This document shows, in pieces, positions 25,448-53,951 of a stretch of 64,000 bases of DNA; the first letter of the stretch is position 1; each line of letters begins with the position of its first letter. The translations under genes and the position numbers were made by a program. Where the stretch lies: the IMG/VR virus record IMGVR_UViG_3300021425_002093, positions 79,935 to 143,934 of that record, one strand, 5' to 3'. Below the pieces are notes generated by a model. It worked only from the letters and a program-made list of their open reading frames with translations, had not been told where the DNA came from and searched no databases. Source of the DNA: a virus.

Positions 25448-26167
25448 TTACTGTCCTATTTCTAATTGAATGTTTGCCTGTCCTATCATAGTAACATCAT
25501 TGACGAACAATTTAAGACCAATAAGTCTAGTGCCCGCCCCCTGGCCGGAGTTTGCAATTGTAAAAGTTTTACCTAAAGTTTCATTCTGAGCGACCGCTTG
25601 GGATACTCCGCTTGAAGCACTATATGTCCACGTCCCATTGTTTTGTTCAAAAAACGTCTGCACGCCAGAGGAGCTAATCGTAGTCCAGTTTGCTCGTAGT
25701 GTACTTAGACTAAATGGAACTTGTGGAAAAGGAAATGCATTTCGAATATCGCATTGCCCCGCCTGCAGCCAAGTTGTAGAAAGAGTAGTATTTCCTAACG
25801 TACTTTCTATAATTGACGCAGTAGTTGATCCTCTTTGATACTCCATTCGCATTCTCCATGCACTATTATCACCTCCTACGAATGAGCCACTAATCCTAAA
25901 TCGCATCGAAGCTTGAGTACCAGTAGTTCTCACTATCACTTTTGGATTTGTGGTGTCAGTCAATCCATTTTGATACGTCATATACCTACGGCATGAGCCG
26001 TAAAAGTTATCAAACCCGGGTACACCGTTTCCGATCTGAGGAGAGTCATCGCCATATCCTATAGCATATCTAAACTCATCAACACTATCTGGTCTGGATG
26101 GATAAGACGGATCATGCTCACTTGCAATTTGATCCAAAGTGATTGTGCCGCTTGTAGCAAGTCCCAT
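25448..26167 (-). CDS. Second putative fibre-tip adhesin
   Basis: 239 aa; N-terminal L.TSG.I.L..I...F.NFYG module like the 368-aa protein but an unrelated beta-rich C-terminus; TAATG overlap with the upstream fibre. Confidence 0.65.
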   Translation of the reverse strand: MGLATSGTITLDQIASEHDPSYPSRPDSVDEFRYAIGYGDDSPQIGNGVPGFDNFYGSCRRYMTYQNGLTDTTNPKVIVRTTGTQASMRFRISGSFVGGDNSAWRMRMEYQRGSTTASIIESTLGNTTLSTTWLQAGQCDIRNAFPFPQVPFSLSTLRANWTTISSSGVQTFFEQNNGTWTYSASSGVSQAVAQNETLGKTFTIANSGQGAGTRLIGLKLFVNDVTMIGQANIQLEIGQ

Positions 26168-31116: not shown

Positions 31117-31125
31117 GTGAGTCCT

Positions 31126-38900: not shown

Positions 38901-40085
38901 TCTTGATGTTGTCCACTGATCTGCGTTTGGATGATAGTCATCCATGAAGATTCTTTGCCAAGCACCAGGTGCTCCAGTAGAATTATTTCTACCTCTTACG
39001 TAAAGAGGAACAGAAGACGTGCTAGTTTTAAATAGATCAAAGTGTCTGCCCCAGTTACTACCATTTGCTCCACTAATCGGCCTGAATCCCCAAGTTACAC
39101 CAAACTGACTTGGAAAGTTTGTGCTACCTGTAGTGTTCACGTCACCTGAGATGACGAATTCTCTTGTGTCGTTTTCATAGCCAGTGAGATATGATGCATC
39201 TGCGGCGAGATAAGTATCATAAAAGTCTACGTAGTCATCTGAGCTAAATGCGTTTGTGCCTAGCGCTCTTGTGCTTACTTGATCTGATCCATTGATCATT
39301 AAAGCGGTTGTCTGAGCATCAGCACCAAGACCTGCGATAGTCAATCCGCCTTGAATATATAATCCATCAGTCGGAGGTGTAGTTCCATCTGAAGCGGCAC
39401 CAATCGTTGTACCGCCGTCAATATGAAGCTTTTTACCGACTATGCTTGATCCGCCCCCACCAATGGCAAACGTTCCGGTTAATCCTCTGTACCAGAGATA
39501 ATCTGTAGCATCAACATCAGTAAATTGTATACCAGCGTAAGTAGTTCCATTTCCGTTTAGAATTAGCTGTCTGTCAGAGGAATTAGTAAGCGTTAGGATA
39601 CCTGTCATAGTATCGTCAGCATCGCTTCGGACAAACTGTGTTGAGTTTAAGGAGTCTAATGTACCCGCATCAAGAGTTCCTTCGTCTGCTGTTGTAAGTA
39701 CTCTGTTTCCACCAACGTCCAATTGTGCGTTTGTGTGATCAGCACCATCGCTAGTAAGTTGTAATTCCGCTCCACCTGTACCCGATACAGTAGCGATCAG
39801 TTTTCCGTCATCATTCTGATAGAAAAGCCAATCGAAGCTTGCGAGAGTGTTGTTGAAATCGACTCGCCCGTTAGTGCCAGTTCCCGTCAACTTTAAATTG
39901 TTTCCGTTGAGTAAAAAATCAGCGGCAGCTAACGTGAGTTGAGACTTGGTCGCACTGATATGATCAACGGACAGCGTGGCCGTATTTAGCTCTGTACTAG
40001 TCGCAGAGGTAAACTCAATTTTGGGATCGTCCGAAGACGACCCTATATTGGGCGTAATTAAAATGTTCTTATCTGTCAAAGCCAT
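35961..40085 (-). CDS. Long tail fibre with S74 chaperone, paralogue 1
   Basis: 1374 aa; MALTDKNILITPNIGS; LDS..S.QFVRSDADD shaft motif; SDGRLKTNV...GVIAQEVQ...VDYERITPLLIEAIKEQQ. Confidence 0.88.
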   Translation of the reverse strand: MALTDKNILITPNIGSSSDDPKIEFTSATSTELNTATLSVDHISATKSQLTLAAADFLLNGNNLKLTGTGTNGRVDFNNTLASFDWLFYQNDDGKLIATVSGTGGAELQLTSDGADHTNAQLDVGGNRVLTTADEGTLDAGTLDSLNSTQFVRSDADDTMTGILTLTNSSDRQLILNGNGTTYAGIQFTDVDATDYLWYRGLTGTFAIGGGGSSIVGKKLHIDGGTTIGAASDGTTPPTDGLYIQGGLTIAGLGADAQTTALMINGSDQVSTRALGTNAFSSDDYVDFYDTYLAADASYLTGYENDTREFVISGDVNTTGSTNFPSQFGVTWGFRPISGANGSNWGRHFDLFKTSTSSVPLYVRGRNNSTGAPGAWQRIFMDDYHPNADQWTTSRTLTIGNTGKAVNGGANVSWSLAEIGALPLSGGSLSGNLEIATGSPVLEVNDTNATTQTNQIGYVSFQRQGTETAWVGLGSIGNDILTLRNTEGEVRLSPTGGIATVDGNEILTTANYNTTTDTRYYTQAQVDEFLDDSYVDNVTATNLAVGWYTIATVSSGRAGARFAIWDINSSDHQMVVFYAAHHYGTDASNTLTCLMNSYFAGNPFRYIRIKELGTYDGAAVQIYIDDGSNQVRAAIVGDNVQTPSWVLKDWIPDATDPGNVSTASNSTNGTTSAWASFTEASRLDLNQIAQGGISTTGPIYADGDTVQYRVIHEGANSVSPTLTGDNTLTFGPNSNPAANTLRIGGNNAGPAADRASIAISSGNLHVDCVEGGYGIYLNWYANTTNGTYFGDGAGSEKARFDGNGQLFLTGNQNNGTGHRITFQDDGSPGLSGGIGFTGSLGNGGGYNASLQSAGELQYSAAGHFFADTSVVNTGVPNAWHRMNGDFTWGTNSGSNVLTQMTFDTSAGDLTVAGDMYTSGYKVVTSPNGPTGDFNTQTVTTYVGALNANANTPFGNAWYNLVNVRHRGGESDGNQYGGQLAWGMTGFDGRLAFRRHNANTWGNWYEVYHTGNSGIFLRSDTDDTAAGQITFPTAIANRPVLGQGFISRGDQGDGDHDIHGLSERYYPSNATAADAWGLQWYGTGNQYRFKGAGSNKVIIDLNAETTTNSATGGILVSDSYRRISAGRGFLNGNYPDIENAGTTNTTGPIYCIGNSWYPGTTTLGNFYGVGYTYSSATFLPYDTARWGMYVAADGDARIWLQATNGNIFATGNITAYASDGRLKTNVKKIENALDKVCKIRGVEYDWVDNIETEYEFSPTAMHEVGVIAQEVQEVLPEVVTTAPFNGIYSQKTGWSKIQRQMEEELGREVTKEEAKNKFEELPIEEREAMQEDYNFLTVDYERITPLLIEAIKEQQELINNMQQRIDALEKDRKES

Positions 40086-40090
40086 TTGAC

Positions 40091-43000
40091 TTAGCCCTCG
40101 TATTCTACATCAAATCTTTCTGTATCTTTTCTCTCCCCAAAGATGGTGTAGAAACAATCGAGTTCGTATGTTGATTCAATGTAGACTTTATTATCTTCTA
40201 TTCGATCTACCCACATTTCATTGTATCGTCCACATGCAGTTAAGTTGACCGTGATAGTGTCCTCATGGACAAGCCCTGTCCAATAGTCAGGTAGTTCGAT
40301 AACACGACTTCCCTTGAGTCTACCCCTAACATAAACTCCGTTTTCGGGCCCTTCGAGTGAGCCGTATCGTAGACGCATTCCTTCTTTTGTTGGATGCTCA
40401 ATATCGAAAGATTTTGTCGTTGCTGAAATCGTGCCTTGGAAATCATATGTACCGTTATTGAGACTCCAAGAAACCATTGTTGTACCAGTGTCAGTTTCAA
40501 CAAAATCTACAAGATCGTCACTTCCCAGTCCAAGCTGACCATCAGCAATTTGTCTTACATATCCATAGCTAGTTCCGGTAACCTCGTTTCCGAAATAAAT
40601 TCCTCGGTTATTGACATTCGCAAAGACAATATCTCCACTCATTCCAAGACCGCCAGCGACAGTAAGTGCGCCAGTAGTGCTTGATGTAGATGCTGTAGTG
40701 CTACTAATCGAGACATCGCCCCCGATACTAAGTCCACCAGCAAAGTCTACATTATTATTTTGTCCCTCAAACGTAACTTGATTTGTCCAGGCTGCAGAGT
40801 CCAGCCTGCGCTGAATAACAAGAGGAATATCTCCATTCAAATTATCAAACGAAACAATCCTATGTCCGTATCCATTTCCCGCTGTCGCTGTAACGAATTC
40901 TATGCCGCCGTATGCGGCTGGTACTGTCTGACTTCCTCCATTAGCTAGTTTCAATAAGCCACCTTGCACCGAAGGAGCATTATCTAAATTCTCGCCGATG
41001 TTTAAGCGCCCGCTGAACTTTCGAATCGCTCCAGTTTGTGTTGTACCGAGTCCAGCAATCATAAAGTCACAAAGAGGAATCGCTGTGAGTACAGGATCTG
41101 TTGTCGTTGCGCTTACATTTAAGAATCCAGTGGTTGAGGCTGCTGTTAAACCACTAACATCAAAGACATAAGTCTGATCTGATCCTACAGCACCAATTTC
41201 AATCTTAACCCAAATATTTGCTGTTTCACTACCGACATATTCAGCAAAGACTTCTCCGGTAAGTTCTGAGAAACCAGAATCACGTTCAAATCTAGAAATA
41301 TGTACACCGTCGTGATTGTTTCCAGTGGGCGTACTTTCAAAATTAAGAATCGCTGTAATTCTAGCTCCGTGATACGAAGAGTTTCCTCTTGCGGCAATAC
41401 GAATGTCATGAATACCTTCTTTAATTTGACAGACTCTTACCCAATAATTGTTGCTCGGACTTAAAACTAATACATCATCGTTTCCAGCAATGTAAGTTCT
41501 TTGCTGATTACCAAAAACTACTGCGGCGCTAGTCACTTTCAGTTGCGATAATCCACCAGTAGATATTGAAACAGTGTCAGCGGCCGGATGGAAAATACCA
41601 GTATTAGTATCGCCTGTCCAATACAGTGTTGGGGTTGCTTCTGCTCCACCATCTGTAATAGCGATTGAGTTTGGAGTGACTACTCCATTGATATCGACGA
41701 CTGTGCCGCTTGTCGAATCTGCATTTCTAAACGTATGCAAATCAGCATCAAAGAACATGTTGTTTGCTTGCGTTGGATGCGTTCCACCATAAAGTTCAAT
41801 GTTAGAACCAGTTCCTAGACCACCCAAGATTGTTATAGAATCAGTGTCAGCGAGAGACTGTATATTTCCACCAACATTTATCGATCCAGTAACTTCCGCT
41901 GTTCCGTTATTATTAAGTCTTAACCATTCTGTTTCGAAAGCAACTGTCTTTGGCGTAGTACCTCCACCATCTTCTGTTGTCGATCCGAAGATAAGTTTAT
42001 CGACACTTTCGTCCCAGAACATTCCAACATTATAGTTTGCCGCAGTTGCTGTAGAATATCTCTGAAGAAGAATACCTGTGTCACTTGCCGCAGTTGCTTG
42101 ACCTTTGTTCAGAGTGATTATGGAATCTTCGACATCAAGATTTGACGTATTGAGTGTGATCGTATCTCCATTGACGGTAAGATTTCCAGTAACAGTAATG
42201 TCTGTTCCGACTTCAAGATTCCCACCGACATACAAGTTTTCAGCAACACCCGCACCGCCAGCAACTGTCAATGCTCCTGTCGAGGTGCTTGTAGATCCAG
42301 TAGTTGATAGAACATCGACTGATTGATCTGAGCCAGCAACTGTGATTGCATTTGTCTCTACACCACTTGCGTTTGCTGTGCGAATCAGAAGATTTGTTAC
42401 TGTTGCTCCCGTTGCATGTCCCGCTGTAAGAACAGCATCTGATCCGTTGACACCTAAACCGATGTACTCCGAAGATTCGTCTGCGCCTGTAACTCGCAAG
42501 ATGACATTTGCGTCAGTGCCATTATGGAAATTAGCAAGATTCGTTGCGGATGAAGTACCAACTTCCAATCGAGAAAGCGCTCGAACTTCTCCAGTAACTT
42601 CGATGTCTCCACCAGCGTATACGTTTTCCGCAACTCCGACACCGCCCGCTACTGTGAGTGCGCCCGTAGCTGAAGATGTAGATGTCGTTGTAGCAAGAAC
42701 ACTAGCATCGAGCGTGACAGTTAAGTCTTGATTAATCGTAACACCATCTGCTGTTGTCGCTAGCATGACTGTACCGTCATGACTCAGACTAACTGCGCCT
42801 CCATCAACAGCAGTAATCTGTGCGGCGTTTGTCGTAGGTTGATATAGTCTCCAAGTAGCGGCGTCACTTCGATAGGTGGCTATTGCTTCCGAAACTTCAA
42901 ATTGATGATTGATTTGTGTGGTAGATGTCAAAACATTTACAACACCGTCAAAAGTAGATGTACCAGAAACTCTAAATGCACTTGAGCCTGGGGCAGCGCC

Positions 43001-43639
43001 ATTTACACCAAGATGTCCAGCATCTGTTATCGTGAGCCAAGTATCTGTATATGTTAGGTTGTTGTCAGATCCGTCTTCTGCCGTTTTACCTATGATCAAA
43101 GAATCCGCACTTTCATCCCAAGAAAAACCAACGTTATAGTTTGTAGCATCCGCAGTTTCATATCTTTGGAAAAGTAGACCAACGTCATTCAAAGGAGTGA
43201 CCTGATTTTTGTTCAGTGTTAATACGGCGTCAGTAATATCTAAGTTTGTTGTGCTAACAGTGGTTGTATTACCTGTTACTGTTAGATCCCCATCAACAGT
43301 AATATTTTTAACTTCAAGTGTTGATGTACTAGGAGTCCACGTAAAATCAGCAAGCGTACCAGTAGTGTCATAGAAGTTTACAACACCAACAACTTCAAGT
43401 CCATCTGACGTGATTGTGCCCACGACTTCTAGCGCTGTAGCAGGAGCGGTTGTAGCAATACCAACCCGACGATTTGCATCATCAAATGATATAATAGAGC
43501 CTGAGTCACCATTGATGTCCAAGACATCATTCGCAATCATCTCTACTGTAATTTCGTTTGTTGAATTCTCTATGTTATCTGTAAACGTAACATTCTGAGA
43601 AAACAAGCCATTTCTGACTTTAAATTGATTATTCGCCAC
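40091..43639 (-). CDS. Tail fibre segment protein (GTG start)
   Basis: 1182 aa; N-terminal FKVRNGL; three STS..TGALTVAGG repeats; C-terminal TKSFDIEHPTK..MRLRYGSLEGPE..VY.RG domain. Confidence 0.8.
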   Translation of the reverse strand: MANNQFKVRNGLFSQNVTFTDNIENSTNEITVEMIANDVLDINGDSGSIISFDDANRRVGIATTAPATALEVVGTITSDGLEVVGVVNFYDTTGTLADFTWTPSTSTLEVKNITVDGDLTVTGNTTTVSTTNLDITDAVLTLNKNQVTPLNDVGLLFQRYETADATNYNVGFSWDESADSLIIGKTAEDGSDNNLTYTDTWLTITDAGHLGVNGAAPGSSAFRVSGTSTFDGVVNVLTSTTQINHQFEVSEAIATYRSDAATWRLYQPTTNAAQITAVDGGAVSLSHDGTVMLATTADGVTINQDLTVTLDASVLATTTSTSSATGALTVAGGVGVAENVYAGGDIEVTGEVRALSRLEVGTSSATNLANFHNGTDANVILRVTGADESSEYIGLGVNGSDAVLTAGHATGATVTNLLIRTANASGVETNAITVAGSDQSVDVLSTTGSTSTSTGALTVAGGAGVAENLYVGGNLEVGTDITVTGNLTVNGDTITLNTSNLDVEDSIITLNKGQATAASDTGILLQRYSTATAANYNVGMFWDESVDKLIFGSTTEDGGGTTPKTVAFETEWLRLNNNGTAEVTGSINVGGNIQSLADTDSITILGGLGTGSNIELYGGTHPTQANNMFFDADLHTFRNADSTSGTVVDINGVVTPNSIAITDGGAEATPTLYWTGDTNTGIFHPAADTVSISTGGLSQLKVTSAAVVFGNQQRTYIAGNDDVLVLSPSNNYWVRVCQIKEGIHDIRIAARGNSSYHGARITAILNFESTPTGNNHDGVHISRFERDSGFSELTGEVFAEYVGSETANIWVKIEIGAVGSDQTYVFDVSGLTAASTTGFLNVSATTTDPVLTAIPLCDFMIAGLGTTQTGAIRKFSGRLNIGENLDNAPSVQGGLLKLANGGSQTVPAAYGGIEFVTATAGNGYGHRIVSFDNLNGDIPLVIQRRLDSAAWTNQVTFEGQNNNVDFAGGLSIGGDVSISSTTASTSSTTGALTVAGGLGMSGDIVFANVNNRGIYFGNEVTGTSYGYVRQIADGQLGLGSDDLVDFVETDTGTTMVSWSLNNGTYDFQGTISATTKSFDIEHPTKEGMRLRYGSLEGPENGVYVRGRLKGSRVIELPDYWTGLVHEDTITVNLTACGRYNEMWVDRIEDNKVYIESTYELDCFYTIFGERKDTERFDVEYEG

Positions 43640-43654
43640 GGTTCCACACTCCCC
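43640..43654 (-). promoter_or_regulatory. Leader motif GGGGAGTGTGGAACC directly before the GTG start
   Basis: Near-identical to the element at 50592-50605; includes the SD. A TATAATTA promoter variant overlaps the upstream stop at 43675-43682. Confidence 0.6.
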
Positions 43655-43677
43655 TTAGGCTTTAATTGTTATTGTAA

Positions 43678-46600
43678 TTATACGATTAGTGTTTCTACTA
43701 CGGTGTACTCCGTGTTAGCGGCAACTGCGGTTGAAAGAATTCTAACTGTCCCAGCATTGATATTTGCGATGTAAGTAGCAATCGGATTTGCTGTCGTATG
43801 AACGATAGCGTACTCGGTGATTTGTGCTGTAACTCCATCGTGAACAAGAAGCACTTCACTTGCCTGAACTTCGCCCGTAGCGTCCTTTGCCCGAATGACA
43901 AGTTTAGCCGCTGTGAAGTTAGCCGCATCAAACGATGCAATAATTTCAGCGCCTGTTGTCGTTGCTGTATATTCTTCAGCAAGTTGCTCTACAACATCAA
44001 CATCCAGGTCAGATCTGAATATGAAACTATCTCTAGAAGTGATATTATTCCTAACATTCAAGTTCTCAGCAATACCAACACCACCTGCTACTGTGAGCGC
44101 TCCCGTTGTGCTTGAAGTGGAAGTTGTGGTATCTATAATATTCAGACTAGGAACAGTCACTAGACCATTTGCAACAATCAAAGAGTTAGCAAAGCTAGCA
44201 CCACCTGCTGATATTTGTATATTATTATCAGTATGGTTATACGCCAGTCTACCAATTTGACTATTGTTGTCAGAGAAAAAGATTGTAGAGAAGCCGTCGG
44301 CAGCAGAAACAATATCTATTGCAGAGTCGCCAAATCCAACACTGCTAGAATCTACTGTAATATTACCAACAGTAATAGCATTTGTCGTAGTGTTGCCGTT
44401 ATCAGTAACCCTATCTAAATTAAACTCAGTCGATTGCAATCCATCAAACAAATCCGCATTCAAATTTGTGACAAGATCTGTCGATACAACAGTAAATGGA
44501 GCAGTTCCTATTGCGTTATTAAAATTAACTGTAGTACCGTCGGCCGCAGTTAACGTTGTACCCGAATCGAAGGTAAGTGTTCCATTCGTATAGTTGTCAT
44601 TTACGTTGCTTCGTAAGAAGTTAGACTGATCAAGATCATCGAGCAAGTCAGCATTTAGATTTGTGACTTTTGTTGTAGAGACAACTGTAAATGGTGCTGT
44701 TCCAATAGCATTATTAAAGTTAACAGTAGCACCGTCGGCCACAGTTAACGTTGTACCAGAGTCGTATGTAAACGTACCGTTTGTGTAATTATTGCTTACA
44801 TTGCTTCTCAAGAAATCAGTAGAATCTAAGCTATCAAGCAAGTCAGCGTTTAGATTTGTAACAAGATCACTAGAAGTAACTATAAGGGGCGGGCCAGATC
44901 CAAGTACACTGAGATTGCTATTAACTGTTAAATCACCAGCGACTTCAACAGTTCCGCTATTATCTCCGTGTGTAGCAGGATCGATGACGAATGTTGCTGG
45001 ACCTCTAATCTGACCAGTAAGTTCAACATCGTCACTATAAAGAGTATCTATCTGAAGATTCGCTAAAGCAAAGGACGGATCTCCTGTGTCAATAAAGACA
45101 GAAGCATCAGGCTCAGGCGTATACTCGTGGAATAACTTGAATCTCTCATCCGTTGCATCTCTAAAGATACCTGCATGAACAACACCAGATCCAGCGTCAT
45201 ACTCACCAGTAATGCCTAAATCTGGATTTGCTGAGATCTTTGCTTTAGAAGTACCACCGCTTGAATACGTGTCAGTAACTGTGCTTGCAATCGTAAACGT
45301 ATTGCTCGTAACCGCTGTGATAGACGTACTAGCAATATTAAAGCTTGGCGGAGTAACTCCAGTAACTTCTACGAGTTCACCGACGAAGTAGTTGTGATCT
45401 TCGGTTGTAGTGTAAACTACGTTTACTCCATCTCCAACTGCGTTTGCAATAGATCGCTCTTCAGGCTCGTTGAGCATGATCATGTTATCAGAGAGTGTTA
45501 GATTCGTAGCACTTACTGTTGTTGTAGTACCTGATACCGTCAGATCACCATCAAGAATCAAGTTACCGGATATACTTGTATTAGAGTTAACTTGAATCGA
45601 TCCAGCAATAACAACAGTGCCAGTGTCATCTCCATGAACAGCAGGATCAATAGTAAATGAAGCAGGTCCTCTTAGATAGCCAAGCGTCTCAATGTTGTCA
45701 GCAGTAAGATTTGCTACAGTTGTATTATTCGCATTAATAACGTCAGCAGTAAATGTTGATCCTGTTGCCGACACATCAACAATTGGAGAATTCGTGTAAA
45801 TCCCACCAGCAGTAGCATTGAATGTAAGATTAGCAGTAGTCGAAACAGTAATGTCATCTCCAGCACCTACACCTAATGTCGTCGTCGCTGTAATTTGTGG
45901 AGTTACAACATTCTGAGCAAACAAATCATTATTAGCTGTTATGTCATGATAGCCACTAATCGAACTAGTAATAGTACCTGTTCCGGTGATTGTCTCAAAT
46001 GCAGAAATTTCGCTTGCCGCATTCCCAGTTCCAGTAACTAACTGATATCCAGTGATTGCACTTCCTGTAGCGCTTGTTCCAGTAATAAAATGATAGTTTT
46101 CAATCAAACTGGTAGCGGTATTTGTTCCAGAAATAGTTTCAAATGAAGAAATGGTGCTAGGAAGATTACCTGTTCCGGTGATAAGCTCATATCCACTAAT
46201 TTGGCTATTTCCAGTTCCAGTTCCGGTAATTAATTCATAAGCTGAGATTTGACTAGTAGCAGTTCCTGTTCCTACAATAGTATCATATTGCGTAATCGTG
46301 CTAGCGACTACATTTGTTCCAATAAGGTCTTCCGCAGTAACGGACGCCACAGTAATAGAATTAGTTGTTGTATTTCCGTATCCAGTGACACGATCAAGCG
46401 TGAAGTCAGTGCTTGTTAAATCGTCAAATAAGTCAGCATTAAGATTATCGACTTTAGTTGTTGATACAACAATAAAGGGGGCGACTCCTATTGCATTATT
46501 AAAGTTAACTGTAGCTCCCTCTGCCGCAGTTAGCGTTGTTCCGTTATCAAATGTAAATGCACCGTTAGTGTAGTTATCGCTTGCATTGCTTCGTAAGAAA

Positions 46601-47307
46601 TCGCTTTCATCAAGACCGTCTAATAGATCAGCGTTTAGATTTATAACCTTAATGTCTGATGCTACAACTAAAGGTGGATCAATTCCATTATCGACTGTTG
46701 AAATGATTTGATTAGCAGTAAGATCGTTTACAAGTGTGATTGAACTAACATTAATATTCAGTGTGTTAACAGTAACAAAGTCGCCTAGTACATCGAGACT
46801 ACCATGAATCTGTACAAGACCATCAAGAGGATCGTCACCATCAGTGTTTCCAATATAAGGAGCAGGATCGATATCAAAGACCGCTGGGCCACGAAGATCT
46901 CCATTCGTGACTAGAGTTTCAGCAGTGACTGTTTGACCAGAGAAGCTACCTAGAGCATCACGAAATACGAAAGTGCTTCCTACATTTGTATGTGTGGAGT
47001 TTGCATTAATATCCGTTAGAACACCACGGAGAGTCGTTGCGTTTGTGTACTTGTACGCAAGAGGATTAATTACGAAAGTGGTTTCATCACCAGTGATAAC
47101 TCCGGAAGGATCAATCGATAACCCCGTATCGGTCGTGAAAAAACGTCTTGAGCCATCGGCGTTGGAGCCAATGAGAGAATCGTCAGCAGCAGGGAACCCA
47201 AAGTCAGGCTCCGCATTTTCAAGACTAAGGTATTCATATCGTTCGGGTGCTAAATCGCTTCCAACATTTTTCTTTGCTCGATTACTGAGCAGACCTATAC
47301 TACGCAT
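43678..47307 (-). CDS. Repeat-rich tail fibre / structural protein
   Basis: 1209 aa; five NLNADL.D motifs, three RGPA.F.IDPA motifs, a 16-aa tandem array; C-terminal AK...E.LLVHDG....TEY domain. Confidence 0.8.
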   Translation of the reverse strand: MRSIGLLSNRAKKNVGSDLAPERYEYLSLENAEPDFGFPAADDSLIGSNADGSRRFFTTDTGLSIDPSGVITGDETTFVINPLAYKYTNATTLRGVLTDINANSTHTNVGSTFVFRDALGSFSGQTVTAETLVTNGDLRGPAVFDIDPAPYIGNTDGDDPLDGLVQIHGSLDVLGDFVTVNTLNINVSSITLVNDLTANQIISTVDNGIDPPLVVASDIKVINLNADLLDGLDESDFLRSNASDNYTNGAFTFDNGTTLTAAEGATVNFNNAIGVAPFIVVSTTKVDNLNADLFDDLTSTDFTLDRVTGYGNTTTNSITVASVTAEDLIGTNVVASTITQYDTIVGTGTATSQISAYELITGTGTGNSQISGYELITGTGNLPSTISSFETISGTNTATSLIENYHFITGTSATGSAITGYQLVTGTGNAASEISAFETITGTGTITSSISGYHDITANNDLFAQNVVTPQITATTTLGVGAGDDITVSTTANLTFNATAGGIYTNSPIVDVSATGSTFTADVINANNTTVANLTADNIETLGYLRGPASFTIDPAVHGDDTGTVVIAGSIQVNSNTSISGNLILDGDLTVSGTTTTVSATNLTLSDNMIMLNEPEERSIANAVGDGVNVVYTTTEDHNYFVGELVEVTGVTPPSFNIASTSITAVTSNTFTIASTVTDTYSSGGTSKAKISANPDLGITGEYDAGSGVVHAGIFRDATDERFKLFHEYTPEPDASVFIDTGDPSFALANLQIDTLYSDDVELTGQIRGPATFVIDPATHGDNSGTVEVAGDLTVNSNLSVLGSGPPLIVTSSDLVTNLNADLLDSLDSTDFLRSNVSNNYTNGTFTYDSGTTLTVADGATVNFNNAIGTAPFTVVSTTKVTNLNADLLDDLDQSNFLRSNVNDNYTNGTLTFDSGTTLTAADGTTVNFNNAIGTAPFTVVSTDLVTNLNADLFDGLQSTEFNLDRVTDNGNTTTNAITVGNITVDSSSVGFGDSAIDIVSAADGFSTIFFSDNNSQIGRLAYNHTDNNIQISAGGASFANSLIVANGLVTVPSLNIIDTTTSTSSTTGALTVAGGVGIAENLNVRNNITSRDSFIFRSDLDVDVVEQLAEEYTATTTGAEIIASFDAANFTAAKLVIRAKDATGEVQASEVLLVHDGVTAQITEYAIVHTTANPIATYIANINAGTVRILSTAVAANTEYTVVETLIV
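44430..44880 (-). repeat. Tandem 195-bp (65-aa) duplication in the 1209-aa fibre; third copy near 46440-46680
   Basis: VTNLNADLLD..FLRSN...NYTNGT.T.DSGTTLT.ADG.TVNFNNAIGTAPFTVVST repeats; accgtcggcc recurs at 44536 and 44731. Confidence 0.85.
45928..46296 (-). repeat. 16-aa (48-bp) tandem repeat, 7 full copies plus a partial eighth
   Basis: ITQYDTIVGTGTATSQ / ISAYELITGTGTGNSQ / ISGYELITGTGNLPST / ISSFETISGTNTATSL / IENYHFITGTSATGSA / ITGYQLVTGTGNAASE / ISAFETITGTGTITSS / ISGYHDITANN. Confidence 0.9.
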
Positions 47308-47638
47308 TTAGAGACTCCAGTACACTAAGAGTAATCTTCAAAGTGCTATTGACTGATGCACTACCCTTTACTGAGTCTCCGTCTTCTAAAATAAGTTTTC
47401 CGGTAATCGCATTTACAGCATCGTTAGGTGCAACATCAAAATCTTTCACAAGCTCTGTTTCGATAGCGCCTGTTGTTTTGAAATGAGAAAAAGTCGTGCT
47501 GACCGGATTCGCAGTAATGTTAGTTATCTGCGCCATTAGGATAATACCAGTGAATCCTACTGGAGCAGTATACAATACATCGTTGCTCGTTGTCAACTCA
47601 GCCGTGACTGTTCTGAATACATTAAGTGGCGTGGCCAT
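47300..47638 (-). CDS. Small beta-sandwich structural/adaptor protein
   Basis: 112 aa; LNVFRT, LYTAP.G..GIIL.AQI.N, GKLILEDGD, ITLSVLE; overlaps the 1209-aa start. Confidence 0.7.
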   Translation of the reverse strand: MATPLNVFRTVTAELTTSNDVLYTAPVGFTGIILMAQITNITANPVSTTFSHFKTTGAIETELVKDFDVAPNDAVNAITGKLILEDGDSVKGSASVNSTLKITLSVLESLNA

Positions 47639-47642
47639 TTTC

Positions 47643-49844
47643 TTATCCTTCTATCGCTAATATGTAGGGCGTCAACACAGCAAAAAGTGATCTATCGAAG
47701 GTCACACCCTCAATAATACCTGCGTCCCTGTTAATTAAAAGTTCTGATCCAATTCTGAAATCACCTTTGTGATCCGTACTTGTAAAGTACACTTGTCCAG
47801 CATTGTTATCGTCAAATACAATTTCGTTCGCTTGAATTGGAATCGCACCTGTTCTCGGAGTATTATAGAATACTTCAGTGCCTGTTCCTATATATTCAAA
47901 TGTAATCGAGCTAGCAACAATCAGACTTCTTTGGAAAAACTCCATTGTAGTCGAATCAACAATATCCTGATCCAAAGACTCAAGAAGCGTGAGTGTTGCT
48001 GTATCACCATCTACTATAATTGTTGTAATTGTCGAAATGCTCGTTGTCACAATAGATTGTGTTGCGGGATCAATCGCTAATGCATTGATTTGATCTCGAA
48101 GATAGTTAATAGCGTCAACAGTTTCAGCTTCTTGCTCATTTACTACAACCGATGCGTTTGCTCTCTGATACGATGCACCAGCAAGCGTAGAGTTATAATC
48201 TGTACCAAGCGCAAGATCTCGTATTACCGCATCAACAATCAAACCAACGTCTCGACTACACTTTGCTTCATCGTAATCAAGTGCTGGATATGTTGTGTTA
48301 ATATATGTAATCACGTCCGCTTGAAGTGTTGCTTTTGCCGCTAAGATTGTGTTATAATCTGTCAAATCTACACCAGTAAAGTCTGGATCGACAACGGCAG
48401 GAAGATTGTCAAGATTGCCTGCTGTAATTACATCGATAATAATATCAACTAAGGCTTCAACACGATTAGTCTCTGTCTGACTAGCGGCTGCAGCATCTGT
48501 GTTCTGACCCATTGCTAGTTCTTGAACGATTTGTCCAAGCAAAGTTTTCAAATATTCATATGAGTTAATTGTTGCAGTAACTTGATCTGCGGGTAACTGA
48601 CTAACCGCTCCAACAAAGTATGCCTGAGCAACAGAAAGGGTTGCTGTATTACCGCCATACAAAATATCATGAGTAAGTGCATCAACGATGTAATGAATAT
48701 CTCTCTTACACTTACCGATGTTATACTCGATTTCCGGATAGTTTTCTTCAATGTATCTGACAGTCTTTTCTGACGCAAATGTTCTATTGTTTTGAAGTTG
48801 CTGAGACGCATTTAATTCATTTACAGTAGAACCTGGTGCCGCAGGATATACAATGTTTTCAATTTCTTCTGTAACAAAAAGACCCGATGTGTTTTCTACT
48901 GTGTGATACTTGTCAATCCCCGCAAACTTAATAGCATCTCCGTATTTGGGTCGCTCTGTAACATCTTTTAACTCAATCACACTCGTTGTTGCTCTAGCCA
49001 GTCCAGACGAAGTGGCTGTATATATGACACCACTCGTACCTGTTGCTCTCAACCCGTAAGTACCGAATGAGCAGTTTGAGTTTGTTAGAGAGCAGAATCC
49101 ACCGTTTTCCGCTAGAATCCCATCTTCGCACGAAATCGTAAACTGAGATACAAGCTGAGCATATCCACGATTCAGAAGATGAACGCCAATTCCGCCAAAG
49201 TTGATATTAGTGTATGCATCAGCAACCATTGAACGAAGACCGGAACAGTGATTGCCGTCGATTCTCATTCCTGTTCCGGTAGTTGTAATTGAACTACAGT
49301 TTTGAACATAAGGAGATGTTCGAATCTCGCCTGCTGATCCGTCTGGATTAAACGATACAGCCGCTGAAGGAGACACATAGTCTCTAAACGTTACACCGGT
49401 GAAGTGAGATCCGTTATTTACATAAAAGAGATCGTTCGTTGACACTGAAGGACGAATATTTGTTGTGCGAAGATTGTCTCCGACAATCGCAACTCTTTCT
49501 GGGATGTTTACACCACCTGCGCTATTGTCTAGAACATGATCTCCGCTCTTTAGAAAAATAGTTGTGCCTGGTTGGGCAACTGAGAGTGCTTGGTTAATTG
49601 TTGCGAAAGCTTCTGCAAGAGTCGTTCCATTGTTATCCGTATCGCTTCCAGTTTTCGAGACGTATAAGACATTATCAGTTCTCTCCGCTAAGCCTACTTC
49701 TCTGACGCTAATAGTTCCATCTTTATCACGAGTAAAGTACATCTTGCCATCATGAGTGTTGATAGCAATTTCACCAGTATCAATCTGTGTTGTTGTTGGA
49801 ACCCTTCCAGCAATGTCGCTTCTTTTGTGTCTTATTATTGACAT
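47643..49844 (-). CDS. Fibre/spike protein: fibre-type N-terminus, pectin-lyase-like beta-helix, two inserted helical KCxRD domains
   Basis: 733 aa; HKRS..AGRVPT.....GEIAIN..DGK.Y; LYVSKTGSD...G.T...AFATI..AL; GDNLR; SPYVQNCSS; KCKRDIHYIVDA and KCSRDVGLIVDA. Confidence 0.8.
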   Translation of the reverse strand: MSIIRHKRSDIAGRVPTTTQIDTGEIAINTHDGKMYFTRDKDGTISVREVGLAERTDNVLYVSKTGSDTDNNGTTLAEAFATINQALSVAQPGTTIFLKSGDHVLDNSAGGVNIPERVAIVGDNLRTTNIRPSVSTNDLFYVNNGSHFTGVTFRDYVSPSAAVSFNPDGSAGEIRTSPYVQNCSSITTTGTGMRIDGNHCSGLRSMVADAYTNINFGGIGVHLLNRGYAQLVSQFTISCEDGILAENGGFCSLTNSNCSFGTYGLRATGTSGVIYTATSSGLARATTSVIELKDVTERPKYGDAIKFAGIDKYHTVENTSGLFVTEEIENIVYPAAPGSTVNELNASQQLQNNRTFASEKTVRYIEENYPEIEYNIGKCKRDIHYIVDALTHDILYGGNTATLSVAQAYFVGAVSQLPADQVTATINSYEYLKTLLGQIVQELAMGQNTDAAAASQTETNRVEALVDIIIDVITAGNLDNLPAVVDPDFTGVDLTDYNTILAAKATLQADVITYINTTYPALDYDEAKCSRDVGLIVDAVIRDLALGTDYNSTLAGASYQRANASVVVNEQEAETVDAINYLRDQINALAIDPATQSIVTTSISTITTIIVDGDTATLTLLESLDQDIVDSTTMEFFQRSLIVASSITFEYIGTGTEVFYNTPRTGAIPIQANEIVFDDNNAGQVYFTSTDHKGDFRIGSELLINRDAGIIEGVTFDRSLFAVLTPYILAIEG

Positions 49845-49889
49845 AATGTCTCTTTACCTGTATAATTGCTTTAGGCGCTAAAAAATGTA

Positions 49890-50591
49890 TTAATAGATTC
49901 CACCGTCAATATATGCTTCAAGTTCAGCTAATTGAGCAGTGTTGGGATCAGTCCCTGTAGTCCAGTAATCATTGTCTTCATCCCAAAAGAACGAGACATC
50001 AGGCTCAGCACCACGATTTACAATCAAGCCAGCGTCTTCGAAGGGAACAACTTGATTAGAAAGATCTTCATTCAGAGTGAAGAAAGGCCCAGTAAATAAG
50101 AAGTCATCAGCGTTGATTGTTCCACCAACAGTGATATCTCCTGTTAAGTTTAGCGTAGATGCTTCAATGTTTGTTGCTTTTACGTCTCCACCAACTTCGA
50201 GTTCAACAGTTGGGCTGAGATTATTAATCCCGACACGACCTTGAGAGTCTACGAGGAGTCTTGGAACACCTAATCCATCCGCTAAAACAACATTCCCACT
50301 TGACGATGAAATGTCAAGCCCATTAGAGTTTCCGTTGAAATTACCAATAATGACGTTGTTTGATCCAGTGACCGCTTGCCCAGCGTTATTTCCAATAGCA
50401 ATGTTATTTTGTCCAGAGACATTATTTGCTAGAGGAGATACGCCGTATACAAGATTGTTCGCAACTGGACCTTCACCAACAGTAATACCGTTGATTGTCG
50501 CATCCTGTCCGATAGTAACAGCCTGACTGATCGTTGCGCCATTATTGACAACAAGACCATTTTTTACAATAAAATCTTGAAACGTAGCCAA
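49890..50591 (-). CDS. Short fibre connector protein (TTG start)
   Basis: 233 aa; N-terminal DFIVKNGL; NNIAIG repeats; DAGLIVNRG...FFWDE; ends IDGGIY. Confidence 0.75.
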   Translation of the reverse strand: MATFQDFIVKNGLVVNNGATISQAVTIGQDATINGITVGEGPVANNLVYGVSPLANNVSGQNNIAIGNNAGQAVTGSNNVIIGNFNGNSNGLDISSSSGNVVLADGLGVPRLLVDSQGRVGINNLSPTVELEVGGDVKATNIEASTLNLTGDITVGGTINADDFLFTGPFFTLNEDLSNQVVPFEDAGLIVNRGAEPDVSFFWDEDNDYWTTGTDPNTAQLAELEAYIDGGIY

Positions 50592-50605
50592 GGTTCCCTC
50601 TCCCC
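50592..50605 (-). promoter_or_regulatory. Leader motif GGGGAGAGGGAACC directly before the TTG start
   Basis: Second copy of the 43640-43654 element. Confidence 0.6.
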
Positions 50606-50620
50606 GTTGACCTTATGAAT

Positions 50621-50628
50621 TATTTATA
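50621..50628 (-). promoter_or_regulatory. Late promoter TATAAATA overlapping the 135-aa stop codon
   Basis: GTA TAA ATA forms the exact consensus. Confidence 0.75.
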
Positions 50629-51031
50629 CTAAAACTTCTATTCGACTAAATTTAATTGAAGTTCCTACAAAAAGCGGGCTAACAAGAAGCCTTACTTCAT
50701 TTGAGTTTGTGTCAATATCTGCGTCAAAGGTGAACAATGGTTGTACAGGATCACTCAATATCTCACCGTAGACACTAATAAAAGTTTCAGTTCCGTCATG
50801 TGTAAGATTCAACTCCAGCACATGAATTTCGTTGTTGTATGTTCCTTGAATCGCATACTTAGCAAATCTAACTGTATTAAGATCAAAGGAATCGAGCACT
50901 TGATTAGGAAGAATATTTTCAGTTGTAAATCCACCATTATTAAGTCCAAGTCCACCACCGCTTGCTCCAGCGGTGTAGTTTGTTACGACAATATTCTTTC
51001 TTGGGGCTACTGTAGCTTTAATATTTCCCAT
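50624..51031 (-). CDS. Small structural protein with an HDG-type domain
   Basis: 135 aa; AKY.IQ......H..EL.LTHDGT...IS.YG, homologous by eye to the C-terminus of the 1209-aa protein. Confidence 0.7.
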   Translation of the reverse strand: MGNIKATVAPRKNIVVTNYTAGASGGGLGLNNGGFTTENILPNQVLDSFDLNTVRFAKYAIQGTYNNEIHVLELNLTHDGTETFISVYGEILSDPVQPLFTFDADIDTNSNEVRLLVSPLFVGTSIKFSRIEVLV

Positions 51032-51042
51032 TATAGCTTACC

Positions 51043-51375
51043 TTAAATTCTAGTGATACCCGGTGTAACTGTCACAACTCCTTCTACAACTCTTGTGATG
51101 TCTCCACCCAAAGAAGTCATCTCTACATCATATAGGTAACGACCGGGAACGATATCTACTGTCTGTGCAGAGTTTAATGCCAGCGTGATCTGACCCGTTG
51201 CTCCGGTTTGGGCGGCGCTGAATGTGATCGCTGTTGTTGACGCATAGTTTTTACGCATTTGTGCGGCAACTGTATATCCCGACAAATCAAAAACTTCGCC
51301 GTCGATATCTGTAACGTCAATAGTTGCTGAAAAATCTGTGCCTTGATCAACGACAAGATTTGCTTTGATAGCCAT
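51043..51375 (-). CDS. Small Ig-like virion structural protein
   Basis: 110 aa; NL.VDQG.DF, DLSGYT..AQMRK.Y, GRYLYDVE, TRVVEG.VTVTP.IT, a pattern I recognise from T4-like marine phages; GGAG SD. Confidence 0.75.
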   Translation of the reverse strand: MAIKANLVVDQGTDFSATIDVTDIDGEVFDLSGYTVAAQMRKNYASTTAITFSAAQTGATGQITLALNSAQTVDIVPGRYLYDVEMTSLGGDITRVVEGVVTVTPGITRI

Positions 51376-51401
51376 TGGGATCTCCTAAGTAATCATGATT
51401 A

Positions 51402-51413
51402 TATTTATAAATA
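51402..51413. promoter_or_regulatory. Palindromic bidirectional late promoter TATTTATAAATA
   Basis: TATAAATA on minus (51402-51409) and on plus (51406-51413), between divergent genes. Confidence 0.8.
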
Positions 51414-51446
51414 CAATAAACCTTTCATTTAACAAAATGGATTCCT

Positions 51447-53951
51447 ATGTCTAGAAAATATCAAAAGTTTGGATTGAGAGCAGATAAAAATTTAGCTGAT
51501 CTCTCGAATCCAATATCGGCTCTCACGAATCTGCTAGATAATATCTCAGTGTCCGGAGATGGATTTATTCCAGACGATTTGCTAATCATCGACGGACTGA
51601 GAAACACTGCGATTAGTCCAGATGACTTTCGAGAGCTAGATGGTAGAGTCGTAACATTTACTCGACTTTCAGATGGTGCTAATCTTCCAGTAACACCGCT
51701 TCTAAGAATCCAAGATTTCATTAGTAACTTCCAAACAATCTTTGGTGATCCACCATTTATTGGTGGAGGTGACGGATTTTTAGCAAACTTTGTTCCTTCT
51801 ACTCGGGTAACTCCAACAGCATCTGCAACAACAACTGGAAATAGTCAAGCAGTCGCTGTAACGGATAAAGACGATTTAGTCGGAACAGGAAATCTATTCT
51901 CGACTTATGTACCAGATCCCGCTGTAGAGCCAGGTCATCCATTTTTAAGACGAGATATTATTGGGCCAGAATTCTTTTGGGATAGAGGTATTTTTTCTTT
52001 TGATGGAAAGTTGCACCCAACATTTCCGGATGCATATGGTCTAATACAATGGACGGGATATATGTCCAGTGACTTCAGTTTCGTTTTTGAAACAACAGGT
52101 ATGTTTTTAGTAGAAGAAGATACCTTGAATGACGGTAACTGGATAACAAAGAAGAACATTTACGATCAAACACGAGAAATACCAATAGGTAATGTCACTG
52201 TCCAAACTGCTTATGATGGATCATCTACTGTCTTAAACTACGGAGATGATATTCGATACGTAGCTAGCGGAGATGTTATCACCACAAACCCAGGCGGTAC
52301 ATATGATCCAAACACAGAATATACTGTAACTGCAATTGATGAAGTCGCTCAAACAATCACCGTCGAAGGGGATCTTGATTTTGTTGGAGGGGGTGGAGGA
52401 CAGACAATTCTTTATCATTACTTCGAAGTTGGTATTCAAGAAGTTAGGACAGGAATAATTTATATCACTCGTCCGAGGCTTGGACAAAGAACCAAGATAA
52501 GATTGACTTACTGGTTCCCACGTCCATCTGAATTGTCAATTCGACCCGGCGAGACTCCGGCAACCGACAACAAAGTGTATCGCTCAAAGGTTTTACTTGA
52601 AGATCAAGGAAACGATGATAGATTTCCCTTTACTGACGTATACTCTATACCTGCGGGTAATCAAACTTTTAGTCAGTACAGCTACAAAGTATTCGAAGAC
52701 GTAAGAGCCCGGCCCATCAATCAAGACATGTCTGAGCAACTCGATGTAAACGGAGTTTTACTACTAGACTACACTCCACCCCAAACAGCGGCGGAAAAAA
52801 CACTGGGTGGAGTTTCAGTCACGCACAGAGGATTTGGGCGACTTGAATGTGCGACCGCTATCAACAGCGATATTAAAGAAGGCACTTGGATGCTAATTGA
52901 TCTTGGTCAAGGATCTAGTTATGTTTACCAGGTGTTCAGTGTGCAAGAAGATCCGATTACTGGGCTTGACATCGTTTACGTCGATACAGACGATACAAAT
53001 CCTACGTTCGGCCCGTTTGCGTTAGATGGGGTCTATGATGTTGTGTTTTTCGACAATGCAGGATTGATTGGTCTATACAATTACAATGGATCAACGGGTA
53101 GTGTCACTCAAATTACTGGAGGCCCGACTCCTTCGATTAGCGTTTCTGGAGATATTACTGGAACTTATACTCCGATTGAAAGAAACATGCTTGTTATCGG
53201 ATATGCTCAGACGGCATCAGCAGGAAGTATTGTTGCGGGATCTCCACTTGGACCTAATGCTACGCCAGATCCGAGTGATGTCGCAGGTGCTGTTACGATG
53301 ACAACTCCCGTAGACACAAATCTACCAGGTGTGTCTTCTTTCGGAACATCAACATACGTGGTTGCAGTTTACTCCAATGCGGGATTAAAAGATCAAACTG
53401 CTATCATTCCATGCGAAGGTGTATTAGGAAAAGAGTTGGTTGTAGCCTCGCCAGCTACATTCTTACCTTCGGGATCGTCAACTTTAACATTGACAGATAC
53501 TGCTGGCTTAACCAATGGTGATTACGTTCAATTTGGAGATGCAATTCCAGCAGCAAGTAATGTTACACTTACTGTTGTCAATGGTACTGATATTACGTTA
53601 AGCTCGCCCACTTCGGAAGATATTCCAACGAACGTGACTATCGTATTTATTAGTCAATCATTCAACCCAGGCGGACAATCAAAAGAGTTTTGTGTTATTC
53701 CACTAAACACAGCACCTCCTTTCGCTGGAACAAATACTGGACTCAGCACCACAGCATCTAATCCAAATTTAAAAGTGGGAACAAATAGTACAGACACCCC
53801 CGCAAACGTTGCGTGTAAACTAGCATTTAGTGAATTAGAAATTGATGATCCATCTGGTTCAACTGTAACACTTCTGGGAGGAACAACAACAGCGAATAAT
53901 GTTGTTCCTATCGAATATGAAGGCGCAACTTTTAATCTACTAATACAGTAA
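51447..53951 (+). CDS. Large hypothetical structural protein, the only credible plus-strand gene
   Basis: 834 aa; N-terminal FGLRADKNLADL....SAL.NL; IQWTGY (PA14-like, weak); CVIPLNTAPPFAGT; the opposite strand has no long ORF here. Confidence 0.85.
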   Translation: MSRKYQKFGLRADKNLADLSNPISALTNLLDNISVSGDGFIPDDLLIIDGLRNTAISPDDFRELDGRVVTFTRLSDGANLPVTPLLRIQDFISNFQTIFGDPPFIGGGDGFLANFVPSTRVTPTASATTTGNSQAVAVTDKDDLVGTGNLFSTYVPDPAVEPGHPFLRRDIIGPEFFWDRGIFSFDGKLHPTFPDAYGLIQWTGYMSSDFSFVFETTGMFLVEEDTLNDGNWITKKNIYDQTREIPIGNVTVQTAYDGSSTVLNYGDDIRYVASGDVITTNPGGTYDPNTEYTVTAIDEVAQTITVEGDLDFVGGGGGQTILYHYFEVGIQEVRTGIIYITRPRLGQRTKIRLTYWFPRPSELSIRPGETPATDNKVYRSKVLLEDQGNDDRFPFTDVYSIPAGNQTFSQYSYKVFEDVRARPINQDMSEQLDVNGVLLLDYTPPQTAAEKTLGGVSVTHRGFGRLECATAINSDIKEGTWMLIDLGQGSSYVYQVFSVQEDPITGLDIVYVDTDDTNPTFGPFALDGVYDVVFFDNAGLIGLYNYNGSTGSVTQITGGPTPSISVSGDITGTYTPIERNMLVIGYAQTASAGSIVAGSPLGPNATPDPSDVAGAVTMTTPVDTNLPGVSSFGTSTYVVAVYSNAGLKDQTAIIPCEGVLGKELVVASPATFLPSGSSTLTLTDTAGLTNGDYVQFGDAIPAASNVTLTVVNGTDITLSSPTSEDIPTNVTIVFISQSFNPGGQSKEFCVIPLNTAPPFAGTNTGLSTTASNPNLKVGTNSTDTPANVACKLAFSELEIDDPSGSTVTLLGGTTTANNVVPIEYEGATFNLLIQ

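Follow-up and report, generated by a model that had tools for sequence, protein, structure and literature searches.

A conserved, covarying hairpin at the ribosome-binding site of late tail-fibre genes in T4-like phages

Late tail-fibre genes in many uncultured contigs of marine T4-like phages, and in several cyanophages in culture, carry a conserved, covarying sense-strand hairpin on their ribosome-binding site (RBS), with a nearly invariant loop and with the start codon often lying in the stem. Two copies are found in the window analysed here, a stretch of 64,000 nucleotides (nt; positions 79,935 to 143,934) that forms the last 64 kb of the 144-kb IMG/VR record IMGVR_UViG_3300021425_002093, from a T4-like myovirus. 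A first-pass annotation of this window had noticed two repeated leaders, running into the weak start codons of two genes whose products share an FxV[KR]NGL N-terminus, and had proposed a cis-acting translational control element, for example an operator sensed by the protein encoded just upstream, which in each case contains what it called an HDG domain. The repeats are real: the sequence reads GGGGAGTGTGGAACC-GTG-GCG at 43654-43634 (-) and GGGGAGAGGGAACC-TTG-GCT at 50605-50586 (-), 38 and 32 nt separate stop from start, and both upstream genes end GTA TAA within an octamer (TATAATTA and TATAAATA respectively). The idea of a conserved cis element on the RBS has stood; that of an HDG sensor has not, for reasons given below. 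On balance we think it probable that the hairpin is a translational operator, an element which gates the RBS of fibre genes.

The hairpin in the window and across phages

In-frame TAA codons lie five codons before the GTG (43639) and seven codons before the TTG (50591), so that these are the only usable starts of the two genes. The combination GGAG-N1-5-GGAACC occurs at two places in the 64 kb, both of them the leaders, where 0.18 would be expected, while GGAACC by itself is not enriched (12 found, 14.4 expected). As the first-pass annotation had remarked for the region that it saw, the leader precedes no other gene: a listing of all the gene leaders of the 144-kb genome gave none, and the other leaders are mainly of the AGGAG type of Shine-Dalgarno (SD) sequence followed by ATG.

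The copy before the TTG gene (50586..50612, (-)) is the canonical one and the best match in the window to covariance model R1 (24.5 bits, E 1.4e-4). RNAfold folds it as GGUCAA(C)GG[GGAGAGGGAA]CCUUGGCU, with a minimum free energy (MFE) of -7.2 kcal/mol: the 5′ stem strand GGUCAA(C)GG occupies 50612-50604 with a bulged C at 50606, the loop GGAGAGGGAA 50603-50594, and the 3′ strand CCUUGGCU 50593-50586, a strand that holds both the TTG start (50591-50589) and the Ala codon entirely in base pairs. The copy before the GTG gene (43635..43660, (-)) is a variant, folded as GCC..GG[GGAGUGUGGAA]CC..GGC with an MFE of -6.1 kcal/mol; its outer stem pairs GCC (43660-43658) with GGC (43637-43635), its inner stem GG (43654-43653) with CC (43641-43640), the 11-nt loop GGAGUGUGGAA lies at 43652-43642, and the GTG start (43639-43637) is partly paired. 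This copy was not picked up by R1, which models a 10-nt loop. A second R1 match in the window, at 5878-5853 (-) with 16.5 bits, was judged to be chance; it lies inside an 895-aa open reading frame (ORF) with no start codon after it.

The first-pass annotation had proposed to check its element by conservation and covariation across phages, and both were found. An initial scan of IMG/VR for the leader gave 43 matches, mostly due to chance, three of which preceded MANRNFRVKNGL, MAYRNFRVKNGI and VANDKRFVVKNGL. A forward test kept the leader out of the query and used a coding-only pattern on IMG/VR (xTG-GCN, 3-4 codons, then TTY NNN GTN AAR AAY GG). Of the 103 credible genes that it yielded, 74 matched GGGGAGAGTGAACC at 10/14 or more positions somewhere in the 32 nt before the gene, a level reached by 0.56% of random 32-mers drawn from these loci, and 79 had the loop with at most one substitution; about 8 of the remaining FxVKNG genes carry insertion or deletion variants of the loop. 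In the reverse test, which started from 120 exact occurrences of the 14-mer in IMG/VR, a start codon within 0-13 nt and a strict FxVKNG N-terminus followed in 82; about 13 more preceded near variants (FIAKNG, FVVKHG and others) and about 6 other fibre-like N-termini, whereas about 19 look like chance, in GC-rich contigs. As both tests are positive, the association of motif and fibre gene holds in both directions.

The hairpin is also present in the cultured cyanophages S-SM2, Bellamy, P-TIM68, S-B05 and SynMITS9220M01, whose complete genomes (190-209 kb) each contain exactly one strong R1 match (27.7-30.4 bits), always at an FxVKNG fibre gene, annotated as “baseplate wedge initiator” or “tail fiber”. 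The rest of their late genes, like the other late genes of the 144-kb genome, are without it, and so are phage B23 and gene 34 of T4. FxVKNG genes that lack the hairpin are mainly internal paralogues starting right at the preceding stop (loci L095, L133 and L161 in our numbering) or carriers of variant loops. Conversely, the hairpin precedes other N-termini too, mostly fibre-like, in L133, L144, L170, L172, L179, L237 and L238. Among the 120 matches to the coding pattern listed for cellular genomes there was one true case, and it has the hairpin, so that among those matches the family looks phage-restricted. This case (L374, FZLS01000138.1), with the hairpin and MANDKRFIVKNGL, is a 5.9-kb contig with a coverage of about 80 in a Rhodobacteraceae metagenome-assembled genome, and probably represents a piece of phage DNA that was binned with it, not a prophage. 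The idea that another locus, L004, belongs to a small podovirus was rejected, its contig being only 9% complete. The window locus itself gave no match by megablast against 50,697 phage records, and a search for related loci with the 135-aa protein encoded upstream of the TTG gene found none.

The architecture common to these copies is a stem, formed by GG/CC and the flanking bases, which covaries, around a nearly invariant 10-nt purine loop, GGA-N-AG-K-GAA. A variant class has an 11-12-nt loop ending UGGAA and includes the GTG-gene copy of the window as well as L040, L004, L017, L086, L099, L075, L078, L135 and L158; L040, for example, reads GCCGAAGG[GGAGAGUGGAA]CCGUGGC. More than 40 different stem sequences occur, the commonest being GG(G)/CC(C), with others as unlike as AUGAU/AUCAU, GGAG/CUCC, ACUG/CAGU, CCGU/ACGG, UUUGAC/GUCAAA and CAUAG/CUAUG. 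Stems of at least 3 bp are found in 59 of the 79 loop-bearing genes, and of at least 4 bp in 37, where exchanging the 3′ flanks between sequences leads one to expect 16.5 and 5.3.

In an ungapped alignment of 73 distinct copies (A1), 71.5% of cells were paired (shuffled, 50.0 +/- 1.9), and the covariation score of 0.551 (shuffled, 0.207) was reached in none of 500 shuffles, slid registers scoring at most 0.19. Both sides of a pair had changed in 117 cells, with 55 expected. Of the sequences, 96-100% keep the two closing pairs, through swaps from GC to AU and from GC to UA, and the stem thus shows the compensatory changes by which a structured cis-regulatory RNA is recognised. In the inner three pairs there are 16 G.U but 3 A.C, a bias that fits folding in the sense strand, the mRNA. 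RNAfold predicts the hairpin for the two copies of the window and for four more, at -5.5 to -8.3 kcal/mol.

Loop, Shine-Dalgarno pairing and start codon

Loop entropy is about 0 bits at G1, G2, A3 and G8, 0.10-0.33 at A5, G6, A9 and A10, and 0.75 at K7, N4 being free with 1.80 bits; yet in the FxVKNG codons next to it the synonymous third positions have reached saturation (V 1.58, G 1.65, K 1.00 and N 0.97 bits). Since these neighbouring synonymous sites are saturated, the identity of the loop cannot be explained by recent common ancestry, and this pattern of substitution argues that the loop itself is under selection.

In 68 of the 79 copies the loop ends no more than 5 nt before the start. 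As in an RBS-sequestering hairpin, the structure overlaps the SD and start region, and in both window copies the stem takes in the start codon and the first bases of the Ala codon. In the other 11 copies the loop ends at least 7 nt before the start and is unchanged, with N4 a G in none, and those of the displaced copies that were read mostly carry a separate SD, so that the role of the loop can be separated from that of an SD. In four of them (P-TIM68 24400-24431, which is L265, and L138, L137 and L088) 11-20 nt lie between the hairpin and the start downstream of it, and the hairpin is followed by GGAG, AGGAG, GGAGG or GGUGAU; P-TIM68, for instance, has GAGG[GGAUAGUGAA]CCUC and then a downstream GGAG SD before its ATG. 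Where the motif abuts the start, TTG or GTG is used in 13/25 genes, and where it ends 2-3 nt before the start, in 1/33. The stem reaches into the start codon in 8/10 of the abutting TTG copies, as in (C/U)AAGG...CCUUG, and it is this running of the stem into the start codon that accounts for the weak starts.

The plainest account of these leaders would be an ordinary SD region, co-inherited with the N-terminal module and with no function beyond that of an SD. The downstream genes are indeed paralogous at their N-termini, the motif does contain GGAG at the proper distance from the start, and fibre modules are known to move between phages. Covariation of the stem and the contrast between the invariant loop and the synonymous sites nevertheless largely refute this account already; moreover the last G of GGAG is N4, the one free position, the displaced copies keep the loop while adding an SD of their own, and the same hairpin stands before unrelated fibre N-termini. 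We regard it as very improbable, and the view of the first-pass annotation, that an SD does not suffice to explain the leader, is supported: the GG...CC of the repeat belongs to the stem, GGA...GAA is the loop, and the weak starts are often in the stem.

A subtler alternative dispenses with any protein factor: the loop would offer a bipartite SD (GGAG and GUGA), whose pairing with 16S rRNA melts the stem and frees the start, and the hairpin would insulate the RBS from its context, as would suit an often-exchanged gene module. This has a good deal to recommend it, as the loop is the perfect anti-16S sequence GGAGGUGA with one inserted A, most loops end close to the start as described above, and no factor need be shared between hosts. 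The duplex of the consensus with the 16S tail (GGGGAG.GUGA) comes to -13.0 kcal/mol and those of the window copies to -9.0 and -11.8, AAGGAG giving -9.3. Pairing with 16S leaves the pattern of conservation unexplained, though, because N4, which should pair with a 16S C, varies freely, and conservation falls instead on two bases that do not pair, the bulged A5 and the mismatched A10. In addition, the variant with G at K7 breaks GUGA, the displaced hairpins, with N4 other than G, pair weakly (-6.8 kcal/mol) and usually have their own SD, and the remaining late genes in these phages lack the hairpin. We therefore take this alternative, the insulating role included, to be unlikely, if still the foremost competitor of the operator.

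In the operator reading, which we prefer, the two window leaders are copies of one widespread 5′ untranslated-region (UTR) hairpin of late tail-fibre mRNAs. Lying on the start codon or at most about 20 nt upstream of it, the hairpin falls inside the footprint of the initiating 30S subunit, a position from which it would have to gate initiation. When folded it would tie up the start codon and part of the SD; the loop would be a specific recognition surface, and a trans-acting factor that reads the loop would set the output of fibre protein. Both this effect on translation and the nature of the ligand are what we infer. If the hairpin is an operator, our first choice for the factor is an RNA-binding protein of phage or host, to which we give a little less than an even chance; our second, rather less likely, is the 16S rRNA 3′ tail, which is complementary to GGAG and GUGA and would make the hairpin a self-contained RBS with its SD in the loop. 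The bolder proposal, that the hairpin is the operator of a dedicated RNA-binding regulator which couples fibre translation to assembly onto gp9-like sockets across marine T4-like phages, we hold only tentatively and think rather unlikely; if it were true, the phages would have a translational feedback circuit specific to fibres, with a new pair of RNA and protein that recognise each other.

Several points weigh against the operator. The invariance of the loop is partly built into the regular expression, which allowed at most one substitution, yet 79 of 103 genes passed it; and IMG/VR contigs are interrelated, so that the counts above are not counts of independent events. The hairpin is thermodynamically weak, and its RNAfold z-scores against shuffles are not significant, as expected of so small a structure. 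With a consensus that pairs with the 16S tail more strongly than AAGGAG does, it may possibly be an “unusually strong, structured SD” that needs no further factor. The cultured cyanophages have one copy per genome, and a dedicated regulator would there serve a single mRNA. Lastly, this computational analysis found no candidate ligand.

Two known regulators were considered in that connection. A clear homologue of RegA, the T4 translational repressor, is encoded outside the window (G000:C1:63485-63850 (-); 144 bits against PF01818), and RegA is present in one other record, the other records compared being fragments that are 9-43% complete; RegA is disfavoured as the factor, since its sites are AU-rich and on early mRNAs. 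CsrA was rejected: no csrA gene was found in the 144-kb phage genome, and the ACA-GGA-UGU context of its sites is missing here. A complementary RNA partner was also sought in the 144-kb genome, where only the antisense of the motifs themselves stood out.

Fibre modules and putative late promoters around the hairpin

The genes behind the hairpins encode a 233-aa fibre-like protein with a TTG start (49890..50591, (-)), whose N-terminus LATFQDFIVKNGL was placed by the N-terminal family alignment A3, and a 1182-aa fibre protein with a GTG start (40091..43639, (-)), with N-terminus VANNQFKVRNGL and PHROG matches to C-terminal fibre-associated families. The two share their FxV[KR]NGL N-terminus, and a region common to both proteins gave E 2e-6. 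Upstream of them stand the genes for a 135-aa protein that is essentially one HDG domain (50624..51031, (-)) and for a 1209-aa fibre protein (43678..47307, (-)) whose last ~95 aa (about 43681-43965) are the same domain; that the two upstream genes share it was correctly seen in the first-pass annotation (a C-terminal stretch of about 93 aa, 28% identity, E 4e-6). No Pfam family was found for either protein at E <= 0.01.

Structure prediction suggests what this domain may be. An AlphaFold2 (AF2) model based on an alignment of 40 domains (A2) has eight strands and a predicted local distance difference test (pLDDT) score of 90.9, and its best Foldseek match is the C-terminal domain of T4 gp9 (E 3.2e-5, TMq 0.61). 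Against gp9 residues 165-284, VIA gave Z 13.5 and a root-mean-square deviation of 3.2 A over 112 residues, well above unrelated rows; the next structural matches are a baseplate protein from a Klebsiella phage and, from Acinetobacter phages, the C-terminal domains of tailspikes. According to the model, then, HDG is a beta-sandwich with the fold of the C-terminal fibre socket of gp9, a domain onto which the long tail fibres attach coaxially (PMC3004832). The N-terminus of gp34, the end by which the fibre docks on that domain, reads MAEIKREFRAEDGL and runs in the same register as MAxxKxFxVKNGL, and an hhalign comparison of 53 N-termini with gp34 residues 1-50 placed positions 4-21 on 5-22, the expected register, if weakly (E 0.012, probability 3.5%). 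The FxVKNGL N-terminus may hence be a gp34-like plug end that fits the HDG socket, each window pair consisting of a socket gene and its fibre gene.

Such a fit explains the gene order from HDG to FxVKNGL, and RNA sensing by the HDG protein is not needed. The first-pass annotation had suggested that this protein binds the leader as its operator, matching the amounts of the two partners, and in favour of this the order HDG domain, hairpin, FxVKNGL is found at 46 of 130 loci (the HDG domain being in an ORF that ends 15-73 nt upstream), and the two proteins probably bind each other. But the remaining 84 hairpin genes have no HDG upstream, the hairpin serves other fibre classes as well, and nothing about a gp9-socket beta-sandwich suggests RNA binding. 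For S-SM2 a single HDG/gp9-C-like domain was found, at the end of the “tail fiber protein” SSM2_107 (L263, 89712-91376), which lies between gp16 and gp17 and 60 kb away from the hairpin gene SSM2_032. This arrangement also implies that socket and plug genes need not adjoin. An operator read by the HDG protein is accordingly a highly improbable form of control.

Most of the related hairpins are preceded by the core of a T4-type late promoter. This core, ATAAATA, stands in the 60 nt before the hairpin in 50 of 76 cases, usually at 8-30 nt from the stem, and in 0.56% of random 60-mers, which places the hairpin in the short 5′ UTR of late mRNAs. In the window the promoters are predicted ones: an exact core, TATAAATA, at 50621..50628 (-) runs over the stop codon of the 135-aa gene, with its end 8 nt short of the stem, and an octamer with one mismatch, TATAATTA, which by its sequence may serve as a promoter, overlaps the stop of the 1209-aa gene at 43675..43682 (-). 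The GTA TAA endings, on which the first-pass annotation had remarked, are no signal but a by-product of this overlap between late promoter and stop codon; they are not general, and stops at other loci often simply overlap the promoter.

It had also offered, as a lesser alternative, a recoding event (frameshift, bypass or readthrough) that fuses the HDG ORF to the FxVKNGL ORF. Both window gaps are 2 mod 3, both upstream ORFs have the same GTA TAA end, and the GTA and the GTG start at the first of the two fibre genes could be read by one tRNA-Val. The shared frame offset is a coincidence, however: across related loci the gap, 15-73 nt long, falls into the three frames 18, 15 and 13 times. The in-frame TAA codons of the downstream frame already mentioned, the late promoters, with terminators besides in L081 and L096, that lie within the gap, and the TTG start of the second gene, which provides no matching landing codon, also contradict recoding, and we reject it as vanishingly unlikely. 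Translational coupling to the upstream ORF was likewise considered and is unlikely, with a stop-to-loop distance of 3-59 nt and promoters or terminators in between.

The position of the hairpin, at the 5′ edge of the most exchangeable of genes, raises the question of a role in DNA or in RNA processing: it might be a cassette boundary which provides homology for fibre-gene swaps, or a site of RNase cleavage or RNA stability. The PeSL cassettes of promoter and stem-loop are a precedent for shuffling (PMC2839356, PMC4122927), and identical hairpins, stems included, precede four fibre genes in L085. Homology-driven exchange, on the other hand, requires neither compensatory stem changes nor an invariant loop; the preference for G.U over A.C, and the fixed orientation and position at the start codon, indicate a sense-strand fold; and the stem is far too short for RNase III. 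By itself this explanation is distinctly unlikely, less so than the plain SD; it is compatible with an added translational role, and the hairpin may, by this analysis, have a role as a cassette boundary in DNA in addition to its translational one.

In L085 (6501-8990 (+)) the four hairpins have an identical stem and loop, GGGU[GGAGAGUGAA]ACCC, before four different fibre-like N-termini (FxVKNG, MAYIGRQL.., MTVVNPKSISGINS.. and MTSEIRVNKIENRSG..), a pattern that hints at a small regulon, or else at spreading or homogenisation inside this genome. In tandem FxVKNGL arrays (L095:8407-12101, L133 and L161) only the first gene has the hairpin, and each later gene begins at the stop codon before it or close by (...cuaaAUG), which looks like translational coupling.

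Two further features flank the window pairs. Directly upstream of the 135-aa socket gene, a 110-aa protein (51043-51375 (-)) resembles LtfC-like and L-shaped tail-fibre assembly families (Pfam PF23926, 25.8 bits, just below cut-off; phrog_3304, 1e-22), and on this similarity may serve the fibres as a chaperone or accessory protein. Three tandem giant genes (26167-40085 (-); 1649, 1611 and 1374 aa), which follow closely downstream of the 1182-aa gene, have near-identical N-termini, MAWEDKNILITPNVG in two and MALTDKNILITPNIG in one, and look like a paralogous array of fibre-like proteins.

Significance and known systems

Tail fibres determine the host range of phages, and their genes are the most frequently exchanged of phage genes; outside T4, we know of almost nothing on the control of fibre synthesis. 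The motif marks the true starts of fibre genes, many of them TTG or GTG, and is thus an aid to annotation as well as a candidate for a new RNA family. Its invariant loop predicts a specific binding partner, and the Synechococcus and Prochlorococcus phages in culture that carry it (the five cyanophages named above) make it experimentally tractable. The succession of socket domain, late promoter, hairpin and plug N-terminus forms a portable junction, which may explain how fibre segments are chained and swapped.

We found no description of the motif in the searchable literature. Searches of Rfam release 15 with cmscan up to E 10, using window positions 40000-52000 and the S-SM2 and L088 leaders, returned chance-level unrelated matches and none on the hairpin. 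A survey of structured RNAs in viruses and phages, with more than 10,000 candidates, mentions neither tail nor fibre in its main text, its candidate list aside (PMC10690425).

PeSLs, an early sigma-70 promoter with a terminator-like stem-loop, flank ORFs of the hyperplastic regions of T4-type phages (PMC2839356, PMC4122927). Like the hairpin, they are conserved regulatory cassettes that border variable genes in T4-like genomes and could promote modular exchange; in our case, by contrast, a late promoter comes first, the structure is in RBS position with an invariant loop, and only fibre genes are concerned.

In form, there is a close parallel with the coat operators of the RNA phages MS2, Qbeta and PP7, in which a hairpin on the RBS has the start codon in its 3′ stem strand and protein binding represses translation. 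Both are small RBS hairpins with a covarying stem and a few invariant loop bases beside a free one. The present hairpin belongs instead to double-stranded DNA phages of the T4 type and to a tail-fibre gene, and has a different, longer, all-purine loop (10-12 nt).

Within the T4 family itself there is RBS control by operators and hairpins (gp32, gp43 and the RegA targets; genes 38 and 25), also of fibre and baseplate genes, and the genome studied here shares the RegA gene. The split-RBS hairpins of T4 genes 38 and 25 lie between SD and start and bring the two together, whereas here the SD-like bases are in the loop, and T4 gene 34 has no such hairpin. Sites of CsrA/RsmA also present GGA in a hairpin loop at the SD, and the variants with G at K7 or with UGGAA carry two GGA; the commonest loop has a single GGA, however, the A(N)GGA / ACA-GGA-UGU context is absent from alignment A1, the phage has no CsrA and, to our knowledge, neither have cyanobacterial hosts.

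For the flanking proteins the relevant system is T4 gp9-gp34, the socket of the long tail fibre and its proximal half-fibre, as HDG has the fold of the gp9 C-terminal domain and the FxVKNGL end may correspond to the N-terminus of gp34. The likeness to gp34 in sequence falls short of significance in the hhalign comparison given above, and here the socket either ends a 1209-aa fibre or stands alone in 135 aa, lacking gp9's N-terminal domain and its middle one. An RBS hairpin, or translational operator, is thus a well-known kind of element; the motif, its restriction to fibre genes and the junction of socket, hairpin and plug appear to be new.

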